From IMG/VR virus record IMGVR_UViG_2627854066_000006: a stretch of DNA of 44,766 nt; one strand, written 5' to 3'. The stretch is from a virus (taxonomy: Duplodnaviria > Heunggongvirae > Uroviricota > Caudoviricetes). Below the pieces are notes generated by a model. That model saw only the letters and a program-made list of their open reading frames with translations, was not told where the DNA came from and did not search any database. Position numbers and translations under genes: made by a program. Shown one piece after another: positions 1 through 44,766 of the stretch (positions within the stretch are counted from its first letter, which is position 1; every line of letters starts with the position of its first letter).

Positions 1-798
1 TTAATGAACATTCGTCGCCGAAAACGAGTCTGTATCATTAGCGTGATGCAGTCTCTGCAAAGGATCTTGTTGATAAAATTGACAGAAACGTTGCCACAAT
101 GAAGGGAAACGAGGAGCAAAAAGTTCTGGGGCGCTAAAGAAATATTCAGAAAGTACGGCAAAACATTCAGCAGGATCACTGGCAGCATAAGCATCAATGC
201 TCGCCGCATTCTCACCAACTAATTCGATTTCTTCCTGAATGTTGTTCATTGCAGCATGAAGATCGTGTTCCCAGCCAGCAACCTCACGCAACGAAATAAA
301 GGGAACTCCGCTGGCGCGATCGCCGTTACGGGTGTCCAGCTTATGAGCGACTTCATGAATAATCAGGTTAAAACCAGATGCATCAAAAGAATCTTGTATA
401 TCCAACCAGTTCAAAACGATAGGCCCTTGCTGCCAGCTCTGACCTGACTGAACAATACGTTGGTTATGCACCAGACCGATATCGTCTTCCCATTCATCAT
501 CGACCACAAATGGCGCAGGATAAATTAAGACTTCATGAAAACCATCCAGCCATTCCAGTCCTAACTCCAGAACGGGCAGGCAAAATAGAAGTGCTATCCG
601 GCAGCTTCTTAATGAATCCAGTTCAAAGCCCTGTAAAGGAACAAGCCGCTTTTGCTGTAAAAAACGTTCGGCAAGAGTGACTAATTTGCTTTGTTCCTGT
701 TCCGTCAGACCCGTTAAAAGGGGGATCGATAGTGCTTCCTGCCAGGGAAGGGCAGTTTGATGTGCTGATTCTTGTACTTTCCAGGGCCACTTAATCAT
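1..798 (-). CDS. mtfA: Mlc titration factor MtfA (host gene flanking the prophage)
   Basis: ORF 1..837 (-); product from [24 protein letters not shown] matches recalled E. coli MtfA/YeeI. Start set at the internal Met (MIKWPWK). Divergent from serU as in E. coli. Confidence 0.88.
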
Positions 799-5401: not shown

Positions 5402-5459
5402 AAAAAGGGCGGCAGAGCAGTCACGGAGTAAAACTGATACCGCCAAACGTCACCAGAAA
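5402..5459 (-). ncRNA. dicF: DicF small RNA (ftsZ-targeting sRNA of the dicB operon)
   Basis: Minus-strand sequence TTTCTGGTGACGTTTGGCGGTATCAGTTTTACTCCGTGACTGCTCTGCCGCCCTTTTT matches recalled dicF and ends in a GC hairpin plus U-run. Lies between ydfC and dicB. Ends approximate. Confidence 0.75.
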
Positions 5460-6333: not shown

Positions 6334-6512
6334 GCTGACCTCATTTCCCCTTAACGCCGGGGTAGCGGAACAAAAACCTGCTGCATAGTTATTAAAGTTG
6401 AACCCTGCCGTCATGTTCTTACGCCTCGGGCTGGCTACTTAACCCCTGACCACTGCCTGGTAACTCGAAGTATTGCCCTGCATTCTGTGGGGCGGGGGGG
6501 GGCAGGCATATA

Positions 6513-6553
6513 ATGTACTTTGCGTTCATTGTTGTAAAGTACTTTTAGTACAT
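6513..6553. promoter_or_regulatory. Operator-like palindrome upstream of the ydfA-dicB operon
   Basis: ATGTACT (6513-6519) and its reverse complement AGTACAT (6547-6553), with inner GTACTTT / AAAGTAC repeats. Same ATGTACT core as the repressor/cro intergenic region. Confidence 0.35.
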
Positions 6554-6628
6554 TCTGTGTGTAAAAAAATGAGATGGGATAAAGTGAAGCACAAACCCGG
6601 AGGAAGGCGCTACCGGATTTATGCTGGT

Positions 6629-7048
6629 TTAAGAGGCTTTTTGTTTTTTCTTTCGTGCTAACTCTTCGTAAATTGCATTGTACTTCTGTTTTTTCTCTTC
6701 AAGAGTTTTTAAAAGTTCATCTGTCTCACTGTCAGGGAGCTCGTCCAGAAGGTCAATGATGATTTTTTGTCTTGGATTTAACTCCTGATAGAAACGTACC
6801 TGTCCACTTTCTTCTGTATCCTCTCCCAAAAGATAGGTTGGTGTTGTTCCTATTAGTGTTGCTAATTCCCTTAATTTCTCCCGGCGAGGAATTGTTTCGC
6901 CATTAAACCATTTGCTAACCGCTTTTGGTGTTAATTTCATTCGACGGGCAATTTCTGCCTGCCTTCCATGTTGTTCATAACCAGCGTTTTCACAGGCTAG
7001 CGCAAGCCTACTGGCGAACTCTTTACGCGCTTTATCTTCATGAACCAT
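6629..7048 (-). CDS. DicA-like HTH repressor (XRE family, no S24 peptidase domain)
   Basis: 139 aa; HTH segment QAEIARRMKLTPKAVSKWFNGE; C-terminal IIIDLLDELPDSETDELLKTLEEKKQKYNAIYEEL resembles recalled DicA LLELFNALPESEQDTQLAEMRARVKNFNKLFEEL. Divergent from the cro-like gene. Confidence 0.8.
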   Translation of the reverse strand: MVHEDKARKEFASRLALACENAGYEQHGRQAEIARRMKLTPKAVSKWFNGETIPRREKLRELATLIGTTPTYLLGEDTEESGQVRFYQELNPRQKIIIDLLDELPDSETDELLKTLEEKKQKYNAIYEELARKKKQKAS

Positions 7049-7072
7049 AAGTTCAATGATATTCGCTCTTGA

Positions 7073-7111
7073 ATGTACTGTCAGTTCTGTTATAGCATGT
7101 ACTCAAAGTTC
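7073..7111. promoter_or_regulatory. Candidate operators in the divergent repressor/cro promoter region
   Basis: Two 15-bp direct repeats, ATGTACTGTCAGTTC (7073-7087) and ATGTACTCAAAGTTC (7097-7111), in the 79-bp gap between the divergent genes. Confidence 0.4.
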
Positions 7112-7127
7112 ACATTGTGAGGGTGAT

Positions 7128-7382
7128 ATGAACCAGAAAACACTTGAAGATGTAATCAAAACTGTTCGCGTTGCTGTTGTGGCCGACGTTTGTGGTGTCA
7201 GCCAAAGAGCAATCTATAAATGGATGGATAACGGAAAATTGCCTCGCACAGAATATACCGGCGAAACAAATTACGCTGAAAAAATCGCTCTTGCATCAAA
7301 CGGATTATTTTCTGCCGATGCAATTTTAACTATTGGCAGGAATAAAACTACTACGAAAAAGCTGATGGGAGTTGATTCATGA
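7128..7382 (+). CDS. Cro-like / YdaS-DicC-like HTH regulator
   Basis: 84 aa from MNQKTLEDVIKTVRVAVVADVCGVSQRAIYKWMDNGKLP; GAGGGTGAT RBS; divergent from the repressor. Confidence 0.7.
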   Translation: MNQKTLEDVIKTVRVAVVADVCGVSQRAIYKWMDNGKLPRTEYTGETNYAEKIALASNGLFSADAILTIGRNKTTTKKLMGVDS

Positions 7383-7804
7383 AAATCAAGCATGAACACA
7401 TCCGCATGGCGATGAATGCCTGGGCGCATCCGGACGGCGAAAAAGTACCGGCTGCGAAAATTACCAAAGCGTATTTCGAGCTGGGAATGACGTTCCCGGA
7501 ACTGTATGACGACAGCCATCCGGAAGCCTTGGCTCGCAATACCCAGAAAATTTTCCGCTGGGTAGAGAAAGACACCCCTGATGCAGTTGAAAAAATTCAG
7601 GCGTTGTTACCAGCGATCGAAAAGGCAATGCCACCTTTGCTGGTGGCCAGAATGCGCAGCCACAGTTCAGCTTATTTTCGGGAGCTGGTGGAGACGCGGG
7701 AGCGATTGGTGAGAGACGCTGATGATTTTGTCGCAGTGGCAATCGCCGGTTTCAATCAGATGAACCGTGGTGGCCCGGCAGGAAATGCTGTGGCAGTACA
7801 TTGA
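7379..7804 (+). CDS. YdaT-like (CII-like) regulatory protein
   Basis: 141 aa; ATGA overlap with the cro-like gene; resembles Rac YdaT in size and position (MKIKHEHIRMAMNAWAHPDGEK...). Confidence 0.6.
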   Translation: MKIKHEHIRMAMNAWAHPDGEKVPAAKITKAYFELGMTFPELYDDSHPEALARNTQKIFRWVEKDTPDAVEKIQALLPAIEKAMPPLLVARMRSHSSAYFRELVETRERLVRDADDFVAVAIAGFNQMNRGGPAGNAVAVH

Positions 7805-7875
7805 CTGACAATAGCCATATCGAATCGCTTCCGGCAACTCGTGAGTAAAAAGATTCGGTATCAGAAGAGGTGAGT

Positions 7876-8946
7876 ATGGCTAACGCCTGGCTCAGATTAT
7901 GGCATGACATGCCAAATGACCCTAAGTGGCGAACAATTGCCAGGGTGTCAGGGCAGCCAATTGCAACAGTGATGGCAGTGTATATCCACCTCCTGGTGAG
8001 CGCGTCACGAAATGTCACGCGAGGTCACATTGATGTCACGACAGAAGATTTGGCAAGTGCGCTCGACGTGACAGAAGAGGTAATTGATTCAATTTTGCAG
8101 ACGATGCAGGGGCGGGTACTTGATGGTGATTTAATCACTGGATGGGAAAAACGCCAGGTGCTTAAAGAGGACAACGGCAATATTTCGCAAACCGCAAAAT
8201 CTCCTGCAGAGCGCAAGAGGGCGCAGCGAGAGAGGGAAAGAAAGCAGGAACAAAATGGCGATTGTCACGGCGCGTCACGAAATGTCACGCACATGTCACG
8301 ACGAGTCACGACAGATAAAGATACAGATAAAGATACAGATCAAGAAGATCAAAACACTATGGTCCATGGCGTAAAAAACGCCACGAACCAGGCAGGGGAT
8401 GTTCAGACCGTCAATCCTGGTCAGCCAGCAGGCACGACACCGGAAGCCGATTCAGCGTATGCGCTGAAAGCCGATTCGGGCGCTGTGCAGCAGGTGATGA
8501 CCGCAAGGCCGGAGCAATCACACCAACTGCAGCAGCCTGAAGCCGATTCCGCCATTCAGCGGGAAGCCGATCGGGTAGTCCCGGAAAACACCGGGCAGCC
8601 TGTGGGACGAGTAGATTATCCGGATGTGTTCGAACAGGTCTGGCGGGAATACCCGTTGCGTGCTGGGGCAAACCCGAAGAAATCCGCTTTCAGTGCCTGG
8701 AAGGCCAGATTACGCGAGGGGGTGCCACCAGAGGCCATGCTGGATGGTGTGAGGCGTTACGCAAGATACCTGGCGGCTACCGGGAAAACGGGAACGGAAT
8801 TTGTTCAGCGAGCGACGACGTTTTTTGGACCGGACCGGAATTTTGAGAACCCTTGGTTGCTCCCGGTAAGCGGCACGAACAACCAGCGTTGTGTGAATCA
8901 TATTTCTGAACCGGATAACGAAATTCCGCCGGGCTTCAGGGGGTAA
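7876..8946 (+). CDS. Phage replication initiation protein (lambda O-like organisation, internal origin)
   Basis: N-terminus MANAWLRLWHDMPNDPKWRTIARVSG; repeat-rich linker (DKDTDKDTD, EADSA repeats); iteron clusters inside the gene. No P/DnaC-like loader gene follows. Confidence 0.65.
   Translation: MANAWLRLWHDMPNDPKWRTIARVSGQPIATVMAVYIHLLVSASRNVTRGHIDVTTEDLASALDVTEEVIDSILQTMQGRVLDGDLITGWEKRQVLKEDNGNISQTAKSPAERKRAQRERERKQEQNGDCHGASRNVTHMSRRVTTDKDTDKDTDQEDQNTMVHGVKNATNQAGDVQTVNPGQPAGTTPEADSAYALKADSGAVQQVMTARPEQSHQLQQPEADSAIQREADRVVPENTGQPVGRVDYPDVFEQVWREYPLRAGANPKKSAFSAWKARLREGVPPEAMLDGVRRYARYLAATGKTGTEFVQRATTFFGPDRNFENPWLLPVSGTNNQRCVNHISEPDNEIPPGFRG
8004..8310. repeat. Iteron arrays (GTCAC[G/A], 10-11 bp phasing) inside the replication gene; putative ori
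   Basis: Four copies at about 8004, 8014, 8024, 8035 and five at about 8264, 8274, 8284, 8295, 8305, followed by AT-rich tandem AGATAAAGATAC repeats (8311-8350). Confidence 0.6.
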
Positions 8947-8986
8947 GTGTTAATTTCTGGTCATGAGGTAATTTTCAGGAGGGCTT

Positions 8987-9412
8987 GTGGCAAAAGTATT
9001 TACACAAGAAGAGCGGGAAAAAATTAAGAGGCAGGTTGTTGAACTCGTGCGCCTGAGCGGGCGCGAGACGTTACGACAACTGGAAGCGAAAACAGGTGCG
9101 ACAAGATATCTGATGAGTGTTCTCGCCAGAGAGCTGGTTGCCAGTGGCGATGTATACAATTCTGGCTACGGGTTATTCCCGTCTGAACAGGCGCGTAAGG
9201 ACTGGCAAAATGCCCGCAAAAAACTCTCAAGGGCAAAGGTGAAGAAACCTGCAGTGGTTGATCCGGACCTTATCTGGTCGTTACCAGACGGCGAAATACG
9301 CCGCTACGACAGGCGCCTGAATATAATCTGTCGCGAGTGCCGGAAGAGCGAAGCTATGCAGCGTGTACTGGCATTTTATCAAGGAAATGTTAGGTATTTT
9401 AGACGTTACTAG
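8987..9412 (+). CDS. Hypothetical phage protein
   Basis: 141-aa ORF with GTG start and CAGGAGGG RBS; basic C-terminus; no family recognised. Confidence 0.5.
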   Translation: MAKVFTQEEREKIKRQVVELVRLSGRETLRQLEAKTGATRYLMSVLARELVASGDVYNSGYGLFPSEQARKDWQNARKKLSRAKVKKPAVVDPDLIWSLPDGEIRRYDRRLNIICRECRKSEAMQRVLAFYQGNVRYFRRY

Positions 9413-9565
9413 ATTAAAGAGCATTAGTTCAGATGTGAATTGACATTTTCATGGCGCAGGGTAGAGCCAGCGTGGTTGTCCGCTTTGCGTCAAAACCAGA
9501 TATTACCAGATTTAGACATATATTCCCGATAGCCCTGCTCTGATGCTACACTCTGTGCTATTTTC

Positions 9566-10252
9566 ATGACCCCAATAAAAATATTTATGACTATTGCTGA
9601 TTTCAAACGGCCTAAATTGGAGCTCCCAAACGGGGCAAACAAACTACTACTGCACTCTTGCTGTGCTCCATGTTCCGGTGAAGTGATGGAGGCGCTTCAG
9701 GCCTCGGGAATCGACTACACCATCTTTTTCTACAACCCGAACATTCATCCTCAGAAAGAGTATTTAATTCGTAAGGATGAAAATATTCGCTTTGCTGAAC
9801 AACACGGCGTGCCGTTTATCGATGCTGATTACGACACCGACAACTGGTTTGAACGTGCCAAAGGAATGGAATGGGAGCCTGAGAGGGGGATCCGTTGTAC
9901 CATGTGTTTTGACATGCGTTTTGAGCGGACAGCGTTGTACGCTGCTGAAAATGGTTTCAGTGTGATCAGCAGTTCACTGGGCATTTCACGCTGGAAAAAT
10001 ATGCAGCAGGTTAACGAGTGTGGGCGGCGAGCTGTTGCGCATTATCCGGGTATGGTGTACTGGGATTATAACTGGCGCAAGCAGGGCGGCTCGTCCCGTA
10101 TGATTGAAATCAGCAAGCGCGAAAAATTCTATCAGCAGGAATATTGTGGCTGTGTGTATTCTCTGCGCGATACCAATCTACACCGCAAATCTCAGGGACG
10201 CCCTCTTATCAAAATTGGCCAACTCCACTACGGAAAAGAAGAGAAGGAGTGA
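9566..10252 (+). CDS. QueH-family (DUF208) epoxyqueuosine reductase-like protein
   Basis: [18 protein letters not shown] and EYCGCVYS cysteine motifs in QueH-typical order and spacing. Start may be the second ATG at 9587. Confidence 0.7.
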
Positions 10253-10489
10253 TTTTATGGATCACCTTTCTGATTGATTTCATATTGGCGAGGTGACGTG
10301 AGTTAAGTAGAATGGCTGCGGGTGCTTGAGGCTATCTGTCTCAGGCATGAACACTGAAAGGCAGATAGAGAAAAGCCCCAGTTAACATTACGCGTCCGGC
10401 AAGACGCTTAACATTAATCTGAGGCTCAATCTATGAACGGCAAATCTAGGTTAGCCTCTTACGTGCCGAAAGGCAAGGAGAAGCAGGCT

Positions 10490-10645
10490 ATGAAGCAGCA
10501 AAAGGCGATGTTAATCGCCCTGATCGTCATCTGTTTAACCGTCATTGTGACGGCACTGGTAACGAGGAAAGACCTCTGCGAGGTACGAATCCGAACCGGC
10601 CAGACGGAGGTCGCTGTCTTCACAGCTTACGAACCTGAGGAGTAA
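10490..10645 (+). CDS. hokD: Hok/Gef-family type I toxin
   Basis: 51 aa MKQQKAMLIALIVICLTVIVTALVTRKDLCEVRIRTGQTEVAVFTAYEPEE, as recalled for HokD/RelF. In-frame upstream extension to 10433 (mok-like leader). Confidence 0.8.
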   Translation: MKQQKAMLIALIVICLTVIVTALVTRKDLCEVRIRTGQTEVAVFTAYEPEE

Positions 10646-18545: not shown

Positions 18546-20301
18546 TGGCAAAAGTGGCTGACGGGATCCGCTACGCCGAACGTGTTGTTGCAGGAGAAAT
18601 TGTTGCTGGCGAATTTGTCCGCCTGGCCTGCCAGCGTTTTCTTGATGATCTGAAGTACGGCGAAGAGCGGGGGATTTATTTCAGCGAACCCGTGCGCAGC
18701 ACATCCTGAATTTCTACAAATTTGTGCCTCATGTAAAAGGGGCGCTGGCAGGCCAGCCCATTGAGTTGATGGACTGGCATGTATTTATCCTCATTAATAT
18801 TTTTGGTTTTGTCATTCCGCTGGTCAATGAAGAGACCGGGGAAGTTGTCATGCGCAGCGATGGCAGCGGACATCCGGTGATGGTGCGCCGGTTCCGGACG
18901 GCGTACAACGAAGTCGCCCGTAAAAACGCAAAATCAACTCTGTCATCGGGTATCGGCCTGTATATGACGGGGGCAGATGGTGAAGGCGGAGCTGAGGTGT
19001 ATTCAGCCGCAACCACGCGTGACCAGGCCAGAATCGTGTTTGAAGACGCCAAAAATATGGTCAGAAAAGCCCGGTCGACACTCGGGCGGTTGTTTGATTT
19101 CAACAAGCTGGCGATTTACCAGGAGCAGAGCGCATCAAAATTTGAACCGCTTTCTTCGGATGCAAACAACCTGGATGGTCTGAACATCCACTGCGCCATT
19201 ATTGATGAGCTGCATGCACATAAAACCCGTGACGTGTGGGACGTTCTGGAAACGGCAACCGGTGCCCGTCTGCAGTCCCTTTTATTTGGTATCACCACGG
19301 CAGGGTTTAACAAGGAAGGGATTTGTTACGAGCAGCGTGATTACGCCATCAAGGTATTGCGTGGCTATAACAGCGACGTGGAGGGCGCGGTAAAAGACGA
19401 CTCCTACTTTGCGATTATTTACACCCTCGATGAGGGAGATGATCCGTTTGATGAAACGGTCTGGCAGAAAGCGAATCCCGGCCTGGGCATCTGTAAACGC
19501 TGGGATGATCTGCGTCGCCTGGCGAAAAAAGCGAAAGAACAGGTCTCTGCGCGGGTGAATTTTTTTACCAAACACATGAATGTGTGGGTAACAGCAGAGT
19601 CTGCCTGGATGGACATGATTAAGTGGGAGAAGTGCGAATACATTGCCCCACGACATGAGCTGAAAACGTATCCCATGTGGGTCGGCGTTGACCTTGCTCA
19701 TAAGATTGATATCTGTGCGGCGGCAAAACTCTGGCGAACGGATAACGGGCATGTTCATGCCGATTTTAAATTCTGGCTTCCGGAAGGACGGCTGGAACGA
19801 TGCTCGCGGCAGCAGGCAGAACTTTACCGGAAGTGGGCGGAGATGGATAAGCTGATTCTGACGGATGGTGATGTTATCGATCATGCTCAGATAAAAAGTG
19901 ACTTACTGGAATGGATTGGTGGTGAAAACCTCAGGGAACTGGGATTTGACCCGTGGAGCGCGATGCAGTTCAGCTTGGCACTGGCTGAAGAAGGGATACC
20001 GCTGGTGGAGGTTCCGCAGACGGTTCGCAATCTGTCAGAGGCCATGAAGGAAACGGAATCACTGGTCTATGCCGGGCGTTTCCATCACAGCAATCATCCG
20101 GTCATGAACTGGATGATGTCTAACGTTACGGTAAAACCGGACAAAAACGACAATATCTTCCCGAATAAATCCACGCTGGAAGCCAAAATCGACGGCCCTG
20201 TTGCGATGTTTACAGCAATGAGCCGGATGCTGGTCAATGGTGGTGAACCGGAGCTGGATCTGTCTGAACATCTGGTCAGCGTGGGCATCCGCTCGCTTTA
20301 A
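18545..20301 (+). pseudogene. Terminase large subunit interrupted by a -1 frameshift near 18690-18708
   Basis: ATG at 18545 reads MAKVADGIRYAERVVAGEIVAGEFVRLACQRFLDDLKYGEERGIYFSEPVRSTS then stops. The rest of the protein (...AQHILNFYKFVPHVKG..., 525-aa ORF 18724..20301) is in the -1 frame. Confidence 0.7.
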
Positions 20302-20312
20302 CCGAGGTCATT

Positions 20313-20494
20313 ATGTTTCTGATAATTCTCGCGCCACTGGTGGGCATGCTGGGTGCGCTTTTGCTGGCGTATGGTGCCTGGCTGATTTATCCCCGGCGGG
20401 TTTTGTTGTTGCCGGGGTGCTGTGCCTGTTCTGGTCGTGGCTGGTGGCGCGATATCTCGACCGTACACAGCCGTCTGTCGGCGGAGGTAAATAG
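20313..20494 (+). pseudogene. Small two-TM membrane protein gene between terL and portal, apparently frameshifted
   Basis: Frame 1 has RBS GAGGT + ATG and encodes [26 protein letters not shown]...; frame 2 continues ...[32 protein letters not shown] and stops in a TAGTG overlap with the portal start. Frames switch near the run TATCCCCGGCGGG. Confidence 0.3.
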
Positions 20495-21318
20495 TGTTCT
20501 TTTCGGGATTATTTCAACGAAAAAGTGACGCGCCGGTGACCACGCCAGCAGAGCTGGCGGATGCCATCGGGTTGTCTTACGACACCTATACCGGAAAGCA
20601 GATCAGCAGTCAGCGGGCCATGCGACTGACGGCGGTTTTTTCCTGCGTCAGAGTGCTGGCAGAGTCGGTCGGGATGTTGCCCTGCAATCTGTATCACCTG
20701 AACGGCAGCCTGAAACAGAGGGCCACCGGCGAACGTCTGCATAAGCTGATCTCCACGCATCCCAATGGCTATATGACGCCGCAGGAGTTCTGGGAGCTGG
20801 TGGTCACCTGTCTGTGCCTGAGGGGAAACTTTTACGCCTACAAAGTGAAAGCATTTGGCGAAGTGGCTGAACTGCTGCCCGTCGATCCCGGTTGTGTGGT
20901 ACCGAAGCTTAACAGTCGCTGGGAGCCGGTCTATCAGGTCACATTCCCGGACGGTTCCACGGATGTACTGAGCCAGGAAGATATCTGGCATGTGCGCACG
21001 CTGACGCTGGACGGTCTGGTGGGACTGAATCCCATCGCCTATGCCCGCGAGGCAATATCGCTGGCAGCAGCGACCGAAGAGCACGGGGCCAGACTGTTCA
21101 GCAATGGTGCGGTGACGTCCGGTGTGTTGCGTACAGAACAGACGCTGTCGGATCAGGCTTATGAGCGCCTGAAGAAAGATTTTGAGGAGCGTCACACCGG
21201 GCTTGGCAATGCTCACCGCCCGATGATCCTTGAGATGGGGCTGGACTGGAAGTCGATGGCGCTGAACGCCGAGGACAGCCAGTTCCTGGAAACCCGCAAG
21301 TTTCAGCTTGACGTATAG
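20494..21318 (+). pseudogene. Portal protein (HK97 family), N-terminal fragment; gene disrupted by IS91-family insertion
   Basis: GTG start with GGAGG RBS; 274 aa ending ...ETRKFQ then LDV-stop from IS sequence. The C-terminal 143 aa resume at 23017. Confidence 0.75.
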
Positions 21319-21481
21319 GAAATTGAAAAACCAGACGATACCGCTGTCCACGCCTTATGCCACGTGAGCCTTTCTGCTTTTCCCTCCACTCCGGTGGTTT
21401 CTCTCTCTGCATGGTCGATTTTTATACCGTAACAGGCTGTTTTTTATACCTGCACCGATTCCCGGGCACACTTAGCCTGTG

Positions 21482-22690
21482 TCAGGCCGGCATATACCTC
21501 AGCAGACTGATATCCCGCGCGTTTTTCTTCAGCCCTGATACATTCAGCCCCGCAATGGCCCGGCGGTATACCATCCGGCCGCCACACAGCACGCATTCGA
21601 ACGGGTCACGACTCAGGAACTGTTTCACCATTTGTGCATAGCACACTTTCGCCACTGGTTCCGGCTTATCCATCCCCAGAGCACGGTACACCTGCGGCAG
21701 CTTCTCTCCACACACCCGGTTGGCAAGGAACCCGAAGTATCTCACCATCTTAAAAAACTTCTCCGGGATGTGCTGTTTCAGCCTCGCGACCAGCTCCCGC
21801 TGTGTCAGCGTTTCCGTCGCCGTTTCTCCCGTTTTGTGGTCCAGGTAACGGAAGCTCAGACTCGCTCCTCCGTTGTAATGCGCCAGCCGGGAAGCCGCTA
21901 TTGGTGGCTTCTTCAGATAACGACCCAGGTAGCGTGCCGTATTCCGCCCTCCGGCTGTCTTCTTCGACATGTACACATGCCAGTATTTTCCGCCGGCTTT
22001 CAGCACCAGGCTTCTCCACTGTGATTCCGTCGTGATATGTGACAACGATTCCGGCATCGCCAGACCTTCTGACCACGCTTTCAGAAGCAGCTGCCGCATA
22101 TTCCACATCCACCGCGAACGCATCGCGTCTTTCAGGAAGCTCAGCTTTTTCCAGTGTCCGTGTTTATTCAGACCTCCGCAGGTCACTGACACATGCACAT
22201 GCGGATGCCAGTTGAGACGACGGCCATACGTATGGATGGCGCAGAAGATACCGGGTTCCAGACCCCGTTTCCGGGCTGCATACAGCAGATTCTCCACCGC
22301 CAGACGGCACACGTCATTCAGCAGCCAGCGGTTGCTTTCGAACACCGGCCACAGCGTGTCCGGCAGGGTGAAGACCAGGTGCACCCAGTCGCAGTCAGGA
22401 AGACGATTCAGCTGTGTCGCTATCCACAGGTCTGTGGCCTTTTTTCCGCAGGACGGGCAGGCACGGCTGCCACATGAGTTAGTGACGTATCTGACGTGGG
22501 GGCACTCAGGTTTATCGCAGTTGTATTCCTTCACACCCAGTATCCGCGTGCCGCAGGCCAGCATTTTTGTGACAGCCTCAACCTCGATATCGCGCAGGCC
22601 GCCCGCATCCAGGAAGGATGTCCAGCACTGGTTGGCTGTGAACAGGCGTTTCAGCGGTCGGGGCTGAAAATCACCACCACTTCGGGTCAT
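21482..22690 (-). CDS. tnpA: IS91-family transposase
   Basis: 402 aa with N-terminal zinc-binding cysteines (CDKPECPHVRY...CGSRACPSCGKK) and HUH motif region HTYGRRLNWHPHVHV. Confidence 0.75.
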   Translation of the reverse strand: MTRSGGDFQPRPLKRLFTANQCWTSFLDAGGLRDIEVEAVTKMLACGTRILGVKEYNCDKPECPHVRYVTNSCGSRACPSCGKKATDLWIATQLNRLPDCDWVHLVFTLPDTLWPVFESNRWLLNDVCRLAVENLLYAARKRGLEPGIFCAIHTYGRRLNWHPHVHVSVTCGGLNKHGHWKKLSFLKDAMRSRWMWNMRQLLLKAWSEGLAMPESLSHITTESQWRSLVLKAGGKYWHVYMSKKTAGGRNTARYLGRYLKKPPIAASRLAHYNGGASLSFRYLDHKTGETATETLTQRELVARLKQHIPEKFFKMVRYFGFLANRVCGEKLPQVYRALGMDKPEPVAKVCYAQMVKQFLSRDPFECVLCGGRMVYRRAIAGLNVSGLKKNARDISLLRYMPA

Positions 22691-44185: not shown

Positions 44186-44766
44186 TGGCATTCAGAATGA
44201 GTGAACAAGCACGGACCATAAAAATTTATAACCTGCTGGCCGGAACTAATGAATTTATTGGTGAAGGTGACGCATATATTCCGCCTCATACAGGTCTGCC
44301 TGCAAACAGTACCGATATTGCACCGCCAGATATTCCGGCAGGCTTCGTGGCTGTTTTCAACAGTGATGAGGCATCGTGGCATCTCGTTGAAGACCATCGT
44401 GGTAAAACGGTCTATGACGTGGCTTCCGGCGACGCGTTATTTATTTCTGAACTCGGCTCATTACCGGAAAATGTCACCTGGTTATCCCCGGAAGGGGAGT
44501 TTCAGAAGTGGAACGGCACAGCCTGGGTGAAAGATGCAGAAGCAGAAAAACTGTTCCGGATCCGGGAGGCGGAAGAAACAAAAAACAGCCTGATGCAGGT
44601 AGCCAGCGAGCATATTGCGCCGCTTCAGGATGCTGCAGATCTGGAAATTGCAACGGAGGAAGAAACCTCATTGCTGGAAGCCTGGAAAAAGTATCGGGTG
44701 TTGCTGAACCGTGTTAATACAACAACTGCACCGGATATTGAATGGCCAGTAGCACCTATAGGGTAA
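44185..44766 (+). CDS. tfa: Tail fibre assembly protein Tfa
   Basis: [54 protein letters not shown]... matches recalled lambda Tfa; ATAATG overlap with the stf stop; complete with stop at the window end. Confidence 0.85.

Follow-up and report, generated by a model that had tools for sequence, protein, structure and literature searches.

The 44,766-nt stretch of viral DNA analyzed here (IMG/VR record IMGVR_UViG_2627854066_000006; the whole stretch is called the window below) is a lambdoid prophage adjoining mtfA (1-837) and tRNA-Ser. Its replication initiator gene contains two arrays of a short direct repeat (iteron), the second of which is followed by an A-rich stretch. From sequence comparison we consider it highly probable that positions 8004-8390 serve as the lytic iteron-type origin of the prophage, located within the gene of its own initiator and bound by that initiator. 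An earlier note on this DNA had proposed a putative origin inside the replication gene; every testable part of that proposal held, while origin function itself is what we infer from these parts. The elements on which the argument depends are the following:

7876-8946, + strand: initiator gene, 356 amino acids (aa), ATG at 7876 with a GAGG Shine-Dalgarno sequence, in-frame GTG at 7870
7876-8160, + strand: N-terminal winged-helix domain (residues 1-95), the presumed iteron binder
8004-8040, + strand: iteron array 1, four copies starting at 8004, 8014, 8024 and 8035
8067-8072, - strand: inverted (tenth) iteron copy, GTCACG, 33 nt past the last array 1 copy
8257-8604, + strand: disordered interdomain linker (residues 128-243, predicted local distance difference test (pLDDT) below 50)
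8264-8310, + strand: iteron array 2, five GTCACG copies starting at 8264, 8274, 8284, 8295 and 8305
8311-8362, + strand: A-rich purine-skewed repeat, candidate unwinding element, ACAGATAAAGAT x2.9 and then GATCAAGAAGATCAAAAC
8360-8390: imperfect 13-nt inverted repeat, TGGTCCATGGCGT / ACGCCACGAACCA with a 5-nt loop, directly 3' of the A-rich stretch
8647-8943, + strand: domain resembling the DnaT C-terminal domain (residues 258-356)

Two phased iteron arrays within the initiator gene

The repeat GTCAC(G/A) occurs on the plus strand in nine direct copies that form two clusters with steps of 10 or 11 nt. The arrays lie 260 nt apart from start to start and are separated by a spacer of ~230 bp. Array 1 encodes residues 43-55, the loop ASRNVTRGHIDVT between helices 29-45 and 56-63, and array 2 encodes residues 130-145, CHGASRNVTHMSRRVT, at the start of the disordered linker. 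These motif positions bear out the earlier note, which had counted nine copies at 10-11 bp spacing in two clusters about 260 bp apart; the inverted tenth copy was absent from its list. The number of hexamers in the window is at chance level (43 matches to GTCACR, compared with 44.9 +/- 7 in shuffles); what stands out is the way the copies cluster and keep phase, with 10 of the 43 matches falling within 307 nt. On both strands of the 44.8-kb window, GTCAC/TCACG are the sole 5-mers that chain more than two times at 10/11-nt steps. Their chains have lengths of 5 and 4, array 2 being the longest in the window. None of 200 first-order Markov randomizations produced a chain above 3, the maximum being 2 in 168 of them and 3 in 32. 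A tandem-repeat search, by which the earlier note had proposed to check the region, gave matching results: Tandem Repeats Finder detected the 10/11-nt period at 8263-8313 and a 12-nt unit, ACAGATAAAGAT x2.9, at 8311-8345 with 95% matches.

Both arrays and the A-rich stretch are located entirely inside the open reading frame (ORF) at 7876-8946. A scan of IMG/VR returned 80 near-identical Escherichia coli loci, too alike to inform on divergence, with all nine copies kept in 66 of 69. Promoter and terminator scans of the region gave no signal above shuffle level, and Rfam and tRNA scans found no match in the origin region.

Selection on the iterons at the DNA level

Within the ORF, the GTCAC motif is read in all three frames, as gcG TCA CGa (A-S-R), GTC ACG (V-T), gGT CAC (G-H), tGT CAC (C-H) and atG TCA CGa (M-S-R). 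When the gene was resampled synonymously with the protein held fixed (n=20000), its first 480 nt contained 0-8 copies of GTCAC with a mode of 1-2, and nine copies were never reached. The codon table used for resampling took in the initiator gene itself, which makes this a conservative test. Since the motif occupies three frames and synonymous resampling fails to reproduce it, the iterons are selected as DNA, and the period of 10-11 nt, which is not a multiple of three, argues against a peptide-repeat origin. The repeats are therefore DNA-level elements and not a by-product of the protein sequence.

The comparison of 177 iteron units from 23 GTCAC-class genes points to the 6-bp core as the only conserved part. 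The sixth base is G in 86-87% of the units, and the 4-5 spacer bases between cores carry almost no information; the units were chosen by GTCAC, so the invariance of those five positions is circular. The inverted copy is retained as GTGAC in 19 of 23 GTCAC-class homologues. It falls within the conserved peptide LDVT, and thus protein constraint could account for its retention. Its valine codon, however, is GTG in 20/20 GTCAC-class genes compared with 30% at other valines there (Fisher p 1.7e-10, a value that takes no account of relatedness among the genes), and one homologue (L103) preserves GTGAC via Cys-Asp in place of Val-Thr. The GTG codon bias and the Cys-Asp pair of this homologue argue that the inverted copy is also a DNA element under selection.

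Conservation and co-variation across homologues

A genome scan with one genome per species yielded 59 loci from Gamma-, Beta- and Alphaproteobacteria plus a few oddly binned metagenome-assembled genomes. To detect arrays, each locus was searched blindly for whichever 5-mer had the largest number of 10/11-nt links. About 50 of the 57 informative loci have two arrays, at ~+117..165 and +345..430 from the start codon, and in the 37 loci with a chain of at least three copies at both sites, the motif is identical at both sites each time. The earlier note had named a lack of conservation of the repeats in homologous replication genes as one refuting outcome. The result favors its proposal, since some 50 diverse homologues carry both arrays and the A-rich repeat at matching places in the gene.

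The motif falls into classes by N-domain clade (GTCACG, GTAACG, GAACG(C), GCAACG, GTGAC and GACGC) and co-varies with the N-domain. The encoded peptides track the DNA (VT to AT, SR to QR, CH to CN), with ASRNVTRGH becoming AS-NATERGR or ATQGNADATRGN in homologues. The array 1 loop grows with copy number by whole iterons, reaching ~25 extra residues in two loci (L145 and L147). In an E. coli prophage with an N-module 87% identical to that of the window (L002), array 1 comprises six copies and array 2 five, ACAGATAAAGAT comes next, and the protein has 7 extra aa. Four phages illustrate the range of divergence (N-domain identity at the amino acid level):

Aeromonas phage pAEv1818: 71%; GTCACG, two arrays; inverted copy 33 nt past array 1
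Pseudomonas phage phi1 (Detrevirus): 69.5%; GTCACG, two arrays; inverted copy 33 nt past array 1
Spring-water podovirus: 48%; CGAACGC, then (AAG)n
Ralstonia phage Firinga: 38%; GCAACG

A prophage of E. coli O157:H7 (L003, from NZ_CP038328; positions 2652-2955 of the locus) has a C-module 93% identical to that of the window and an N-domain without detectable similarity (hhalign probability 0.1%). It carries AAGGGGCTT two to three times at ~+188..209 and three times at +444..466, in 10-11 nt steps, followed by (GAACAG)n, and represents a second, independent iteron family. The same layout with so dissimilar an N-domain means that the bipartite arrangement is either very old or convergent. Of 5426 complete E. 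coli genomes, 2651 contain sequence related to the initiator gene, with at least 80% coverage in 1647. At E <= 1e-10, the N-domain family comprises 1014 cluster representatives.

The A-rich stretch and its neighboring hairpin

As the earlier note had described, AT-rich tandem repeats follow the iterons, and ACAGATAAAGAT x2.9 directly abuts array 2. The A-rich stretch (8311-8362) encodes TDKDTDKDTDQEDQN (residues 146-163), includes GATC sites at 8338 and 8347, and is 70% AT, 54% A and 71% purine. The least stable 40-mer starts at 8315, with a dG of -43.4 kcal/mol compared with a gene mean of -57.2 (standard deviation 3.7). It is the weakest duplex of the gene and of positions 6500-10300 including intergenic DNA, and ranks in the top 0.13% of the window. 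Nearly all homologues of every iteron class have (GATAAA)n, (GATACA)n or (GAGAAG)n after array 2. Within these stretches the GC content is 22-46% and purines make up 55-90% of the top strand, in genes with a GC content of 42-69%.

We expected (GATAAA)n to rotate through reading frames as the iterons do, which was not borne out (43 loci in one frame and 5 in another), and therefore codon choice was used to assess selection. GAT represents 98% of the Asp codons within the repeats and 49% elsewhere in the same genes, and AAA represents 93% and 53% of the Lys codons, respectively. For genes with GC >= 0.58, the share of GAT is 97% within the repeats compared with 37% elsewhere. This codon choice in (GATAAA)n points to selection for A+T.

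In a single-stranded DNA fold, the A-rich stretch is unstructured, and the inverted repeat at 8360-8390 forms a hairpin (fold of 8300-8400, z -4.0). The inverted repeat is partly kept in the O157:H7 prophage; in the E. coli prophage L002 its place is taken by the palindrome GCGCACGTGCGC. Across homologues, hairpins 3' of the A-rich stretch show modest enrichment only (z < -2 in 10/36).

Other sequence features were noted in or near the A-rich stretch. The bottom strand of the 12-mers (8317-8341) reads GATCTGTATCTTT / TATCTGTATCTTT, matching the oriC 13-mer GATCTnTTnTTTT at 11/13 and 10/13 positions; we give this likeness no weight, as we estimate that ~11 matches that good are expected by chance in the window. 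Many homologues (L005, L093, L095, L098, L101, L103, L108, L112, L113, L126 and L144) carry a C-run motif (ACCCCCCTTA or AAACCCCAC) just past (GATAAA)n, at a distance of 30-50 nt from the final array 2 iteron, and the window has no such C-run. A hairpin-forming CTCACTACGTTCGG is common to L091, L107 and L131. The C-run and CTCACTACGTTCGG elements may be DNA signals or may encode a Pro-rich hinge.

The initiator protein

The initiator is matched by phrog_3729 'replication initiation protein' in PHROGs (E 2e-257) and belongs to an NCBI protein cluster (P0001, 5786 members) named 'phage replisome organizer'. The whole protein has no Pfam match above threshold. Phage_rep_O gives no match even at E <= 1 with either the whole protein or the N-domain, and the 'replication protein O' label in some records is annotation only. 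Compared with the N-domain, PF09681 (Phage_rep_org_N) scores 16.2 bits (E 0.01, cut-off 23.3) over profile positions 1-118 of 121, and it matches one of seven diverse family members at E <= 0.1. Inspection of the alignment did not make evident which residues set iteron specificity.

The AlphaFold2 model has the following layout:

1-95: confident N-domain
110-126: basic helix
128-243: disordered
245-332: confident C-domain
344-356: terminal tail

The earlier note had taken the segment encoded by the repeats (VTTDKDTDKDTD) for an interdomain linker. This is right for residues 128-243, which have pLDDT <50, and does not apply to array 1, which is located in a loop of the winged-helix domain. The linker also contains a 36-nt direct repeat (8440-8475 and 8536-8571, 75% identical, 96 nt apart; PEADSAYALKAD / PEADSAIQREAD). 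Many homologues have 324 aa compared with 356 here, and the O157:H7 prophage is without one copy of this repeat, which indicates that the linker segment is indel-prone.

When a profile of 30 family members was searched against PDB, residues 258-356 matched 6aep (E 2.7e-8), 2ru8 (3.8e-6) and 9zbt (1.4e-5), with the alignment spanning DnaT ~90-179 (6aep) and 103-179 (E. coli DnaT, 9zbt). A single-sequence search matched only the C-terminal tail to DnaT (E 0.003), and the NCBIfam DnaT equivalog model NF002770 scores 19.2 bits against a cut-off of 201, at positions 156-179 only. Residues 258-356 are a homologue of the DnaT C-terminal domain. The last 17 aa, VNHISEPDNEIPPGFRG (8893-8943), are near-identical to the end of DnaT, INSVSEPDNHIPPGFRG (6aep), with the pattern ...SEPDxxIPPGFRG. 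This tail is far more conserved than the remaining C-domain and may be a docking peptide copied by the phage.

The gene is also modular. Megablast searches of E. coli genomes place a module junction at 8333-8351, inside the A-rich repeat, with some genomes matching nt 1-464 of the gene only and others nt 482-1075 only. In addition to its proposed role in unwinding, (GATAAA)n may double as microhomology for the exchange of N- and C-modules.

Replication partners and the phage Tritos

As stated in the earlier note, the initiator is not followed by a helicase loader gene; DUF977 and QueH come next. Pfam and PHROGs searches found no helicase or loader among ORFs of at least 130 aa in the early, late-regulatory and packaging regions, a scan that ended before the ORFs of the late structural region (26197 on). 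The partner gene after the initiator varies as follows:

Window and phage Tritos: none
L002: lambda-P-like (replication protein P; the C-domain differs)
L003 and pAEv1818: DnaC/IstB-like ATPase
Firinga: DnaB
phi1: large 'P' protein

The arrays stay with the N-domain throughout, and the C-domains and downstream partners are swapped. That the arrays always travel with the N-domain points to this domain as the probable reader of the iterons and to the C-domain as an adaptor to the loading machinery.

The phage Tritos, a prophage of E. coli LF82, has an initiator gene 98.9% identical to that of the window, beginning at the same ATG (TRITO_36) and followed by the same DUF977 gene. Its 46-kb record has no annotated helicase or loader, and its GTCAC clusters are found at the two arrays only. 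Tritos forms virions without induction, and MG1655 hsdR- served as the host for its plaque purification and propagation (PMC9928086). The module, which the earlier note had suggested may depend on host factors or be incomplete, is thus host-dependent and not incomplete, because Tritos forms plaques with the same loader-less module.

Proposed mechanism

In the mechanism that we propose, the N-terminal winged-helix domain would bind the 6-bp GTCACG cores, in keeping with the DNA-level co-evolution of domain and motif. Because the cores recur once per helical turn, bound proteins would lie on one face of the DNA, where they could oligomerize along each array. The two arrays would probably be bridged across the ~230-bp spacer in a looped complex or one similar to the lambda O-some. 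Strain would then open the adjacent (GATAAA)n, which has both the weakest duplex and AT-rich codon choice. The C-domain, homologous to a domain of the host restart protein DnaT that binds single strands and forms filaments, could capture the opened strand and bring in host DnaB-DnaC, either directly or via primosome proteins. Such recruitment would explain the lack of a phage loader gene. As in lambda, transcription from the early rightward promoter runs through the proposed origin.

In the host preprimosome, the C-terminal domain of DnaT docks on PriA, and a DnaT filament on lagging-strand single-stranded DNA marks the site of helicase loading; the subsequent recruitment of DnaB/DnaC has yet to be explained (PMC13377028). 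The homology of the initiator to this domain suggests how host factors might be recruited at the phage origin. We tentatively raise the possibility that the initiator is an origin-targeted DnaT mimic, in which a DnaT-type filament on melted (GATAAA)n loads host DnaB-DnaC at a fixed origin. Loading would then require neither DnaA, fork recognition by PriA/PriB nor a phage loader, a corollary that we hold just as tentatively.

Evidence against an origin and alternative explanations

The region shows the general features of iteron origins, namely phased direct repeats, an adjoining candidate unwinding element, a cis-encoded initiator and co-variation of motif and initiator. Nevertheless, a number of observations weigh against our interpretation. 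Seven exceptional loci lack clear arrays, have 2-3 degenerate copies or show another layout: three low-GC loci have 2-3 degenerate copies before (GATAAA)n, a Microcystis phage shows none, one match is spurious, and two loci from Serratia (L128) and Pantoea (L138) are without array 1. These last two have palindromic (A)CTACGTAG repeats at ~+326..+390 and an inserted ~100-aa domain, with (GATACA)n displaced to ~+700, an arrangement that looks like a rearranged origin variant. The hexamers after array 2 are read as D-K/D-T in 43 loci and as QIREEEIR in 5, and this predominance of one frame means that a D-K/D-T peptide linker adds to the conservation of (GATAAA)n. Fisher p values for codon choice in these hexamers are inflated, since tandem copies duplicate codons and the loci are related. 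In the protein, the expected recognition helix (67-77, EEVIDSILQTM) is acidic and hydrophobic, and DnaD-type N-domains, a close fold match, have chiefly an oligomerization role. No DnaA box (<=1 mismatch, at a plausible place) or integration host factor site was found, and phasing between the two arrays has a Rayleigh p of 0.02-0.07, calculated on unique distances and uncorrected. Neither GTCACG-type arrays nor the bipartite layout turned up in the searchable literature, most subscription journals being outside it, and an earlier description may exist. Finally, the portal gene of this prophage is split by an IS91-family element, and this copy may consequently never fire productively.

Four other explanations were considered. 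It is conceivable, although we judge it rather unlikely, that array 2 and the A-rich stretch (perhaps with the inverted repeat) are the origin proper, and that array 1 and the inverted copy are a control element. Array 1 could then act through autorepression, as a roadblock to transcription or translation of the initiator, or by handcuffing that limits firing. The extra iterons of P1 incA and F incC are plasmid cases of handcuffing. This division of roles would fit with array 1 being ~230 nt from the unwinding element and having no lambda counterpart, with only array 2 directly abutting the A-rich stretch in all homologues, and with the inverted copy accompanying array 1 alone. It would also suit those loci where a chain is found at the array-2 site only under the 3-copy criterion (L103, L114, L120, L125, L129-L132, L136 and L137), and the finding that lambda manages in vitro with the two iterons adjoining its AT tract (PMC7466680). 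However, the array 1 motif equals the array 2 motif in 37/37 two-chain loci from Alpha- to Gammaproteobacteria, which is a strong constraint, and a lytic origin has little obvious need of copy-number control. In Shiga toxin (Stx) phages, moreover, extra iterons far from the AT tract are still required for replication (PMC7466680).

It is improbable that the arrays are operators only, used by the initiator or a YdaS/YdaT-like regulator to control early transcription, with the true origin elsewhere. The winged-helix fold is common to the CRP/FNR and MarR regulators, and the minus-strand iterons read GTGACA, which is -35-like, with one weak promoter-like match at 8288-8261. Yet promoter-like matches are no commoner than in shuffles, and the arrays keep to the N-domain while the upstream regulators vary. 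An operator would have no need of the conserved, minimally stable A-rich stretch that always directly abuts array 2. The protein is fused to a DnaT-type domain, and the Tritos genome has no further GTCAC cluster.

Phased short repeats are also found in terminase-binding and centromere-like sites, and the arrays might instead be bound by a nucleoid protein of the host or by a partition or packaging (pac/cos) system. We regard this as very unlikely, given that the arrays co-vary with the N-domain whose coding sequence surrounds them and keep their position in the gene, whereas the phages carrying them (a siphovirus, a podovirus, a Detrevirus and prophages) otherwise differ and have different terminases. 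The terminase genes of the window itself are 10 kb away, and the spread over three proteobacterial classes with at least five motif classes makes one shared host protein unlikely.

The least credible explanation, which the data largely refute, is that the repeats have no sequence-specific function and arose by replication slippage where a loop and a linker tolerate it, or as a repetitive peptide, with (GATAAA)n serving only as microhomology for module exchange: although copy number varies (4 versus 6 in array 1, 3-6 in array 2), the arrays occupy a loop and a disordered segment, the module junction at 8333-8351 lies within the A-rich repeat and most hexamers are in the D-K/D-T frame, slippage should give identical units and not a preserved 6-bp core between nearly information-free spacers, the 10-11 nt period is no multiple of three and rotates the motif through frames, codon choice is forced toward the motif, the isolated inverted copy is held by codon choice and in L103 by another amino acid pair, both arrays of a genome share a motif that differs among clades, and a recombination role of (GATAAA)n fits an origin without replacing it.

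Comparison with known systems

In lambda and Stx phages, the origin with its iterons and AT-rich tract is located in the middle of gene O (PMC7466680). The origin that we propose likewise lies within an initiator gene transcribed from the early rightward operon, and has direct repeats bound (here presumably) by the N-terminal part of the protein, followed by an AT-rich tract that encodes the interdomain linker. This tract comes directly after the iterons and within the linker (8311-8362, segment 128-243). In both systems, extra repeats lengthen the protein, by 13 aa in Stx O (PMC7466680) and by 7 aa in the E. coli prophage L002, and phages swap N- and C-terminal modules with one another. They differ in that lambda and Stx phages have four to six contiguous 19-bp iterons with internal symmetry, in contrast to 6-bp cores once per helical turn here, and in that two arrays ~230 bp apart are present here, one of them within the coding sequence of the DNA-binding domain, plus an inverted copy. 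Furthermore, the C-domain here is DnaT-like and not P-binding, and no P-type loader follows in the window. An inverted repeat comes after the AT tract in lambda as well, as it does here at 8360-8390. The parallel to the lambda origin within O drawn by the earlier note stands as a functional likeness and fails as homology, since there is no match to Phage_rep_O. We therefore describe the resemblance as apparently functional and not homologous, and the layout as bipartite.

The SPP1 organizer gene 38 (G38P, oriL) also contains direct repeats together with an unwinding element rich in AT, and SPP1 has two separated repeat sets, oriL and oriR, with G38P having been likened to PriA (PMC6316719). 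The SPP1 sets are 13 kb apart, as opposed to 260 bp within one gene. SPP1 also encodes its own loader gp39 and helicase gp40, neither of which is seen in the present module, and the C-terminal domain here is DnaT-like. The N-domain possibly shares ancestry with SPP1 G38P.

In the Staphylococcus aureus pathogenicity islands (SaPI), penta- and hexanucleotide iterons are read by the winged-helix domain of Rep (PMC9371898). Both systems have iterons of 5-6 bp in two sets, with some copies facing the other way, a copy number that varies, and an AT-rich region for melting, which here is a candidate (PMC9371898). In SaPI, the iterons are downstream of rep, the AT region lies between the two sets and Rep is a self-loading helicase, whereas here the iterons are inside the initiator gene and the AT region comes after the second array.

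With DnaT, the initiator shares the C-terminal domain and the near-identical tail (PDB 6aep, 2ru8, 4ou7 and 9zbt). The N-domain of DnaT, which has been proposed to recruit DnaB/DnaC, is replaced here by the winged-helix domain presumed to bind the origin. Targeting would then be by iteron sequence and not by fork structure as recognized by PriA/PriB.

Plasmid and satellite origins such as P1 oriR/incA, F, R6K and P4 ori/crr have a cognate initiator in cis and two separated clusters, which the initiator can pair. Their repeats are 17-22 bp (an octamer in P4) and mostly noncoding, and the second cluster is mainly for copy-number control of a replicon that is stably kept. In the searchable literature, no paper was found that pairs GTCACG with iterons or a replisome organizer with DnaT, and broader searches led only to studies of lambda/Stx, SPP1, SaPI and plasmids. 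The Pf-5 iterons were examined as a candidate precedent and set aside, being part of an unrelated island.

Other features of the prophage

From the integrase, the prophage continues with a RecE-like exonuclease, DicF, a cI-like repressor (6629-7048, - strand), a Cro/YdaS-like gene, a YdaT/cII-like gene and the initiator. The initiator is followed by DUF977, QueH, hok/sok, DUF968/HNH, Q, lysis genes, terminase, portal, protease and capsid. The epoxyqueuosine reductase QueH (9566-10252) is a tRNA-modification passenger unusual in an early region, and Tritos has another gene there. Rfam and ARAGORN identified the DicF small RNA (5407-5458, - strand), hok/sok (10320-10645, + strand; hok ORF 10433-10645) and a tRNA-Ser(CGA) (892-981, + strand) that adjoins the integrase and is the likely attachment site. 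An IS009-family RNA match is located near the end of the window (44528-44726, + strand).

In the region 20494-22690, the portal gene ends at 21318 (274 aa, covering the first half of portal profiles only) and is adjoined by an IS91-family transposase on the minus strand (21482-22690, 402 aa, Y2_Tnp + Zn_Tnp_IS91). The large terminase ORF (18724-20301) starts at profile position 194 and may be truncated. The prophage is probably defective for virion production, and the window copy may be a relic in which the origin elements are intact.

Significance

An origin within an initiator gene is a textbook principle, and it is the variant that is of interest here. This probable type of origin is widespread, yet records call the gene 'hypothetical', 'replication protein O' or 'primosomal protein I' and mark no origin. 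It yields an annotation rule for such prophages: two arrays of one 5-6-mer in 10-11 nt steps, located ~130 and ~390 nt past the start of the gene, with (GATAAA)n coming next. The family supplies matched pairs of initiator and iteron for GTCACG, GTAACG, GAACGC, GCAACG and GTGAC. It is also an unusually clean case of overlapping code, in which a DNA-binding motif dictates the loop of a folded domain and loop length tracks copy number. The combination of a DnaT-type domain with a plaque-competent, loader-less module points to a testable route by which phages would draw on the host restart machinery. If the initiator is indeed a DnaT mimic, a family of at least ~1000 sequence clusters would join origin-dependent initiation to the restart primosome, and would provide a sequence-addressable system for studying how DnaT recruits DnaB/DnaC.

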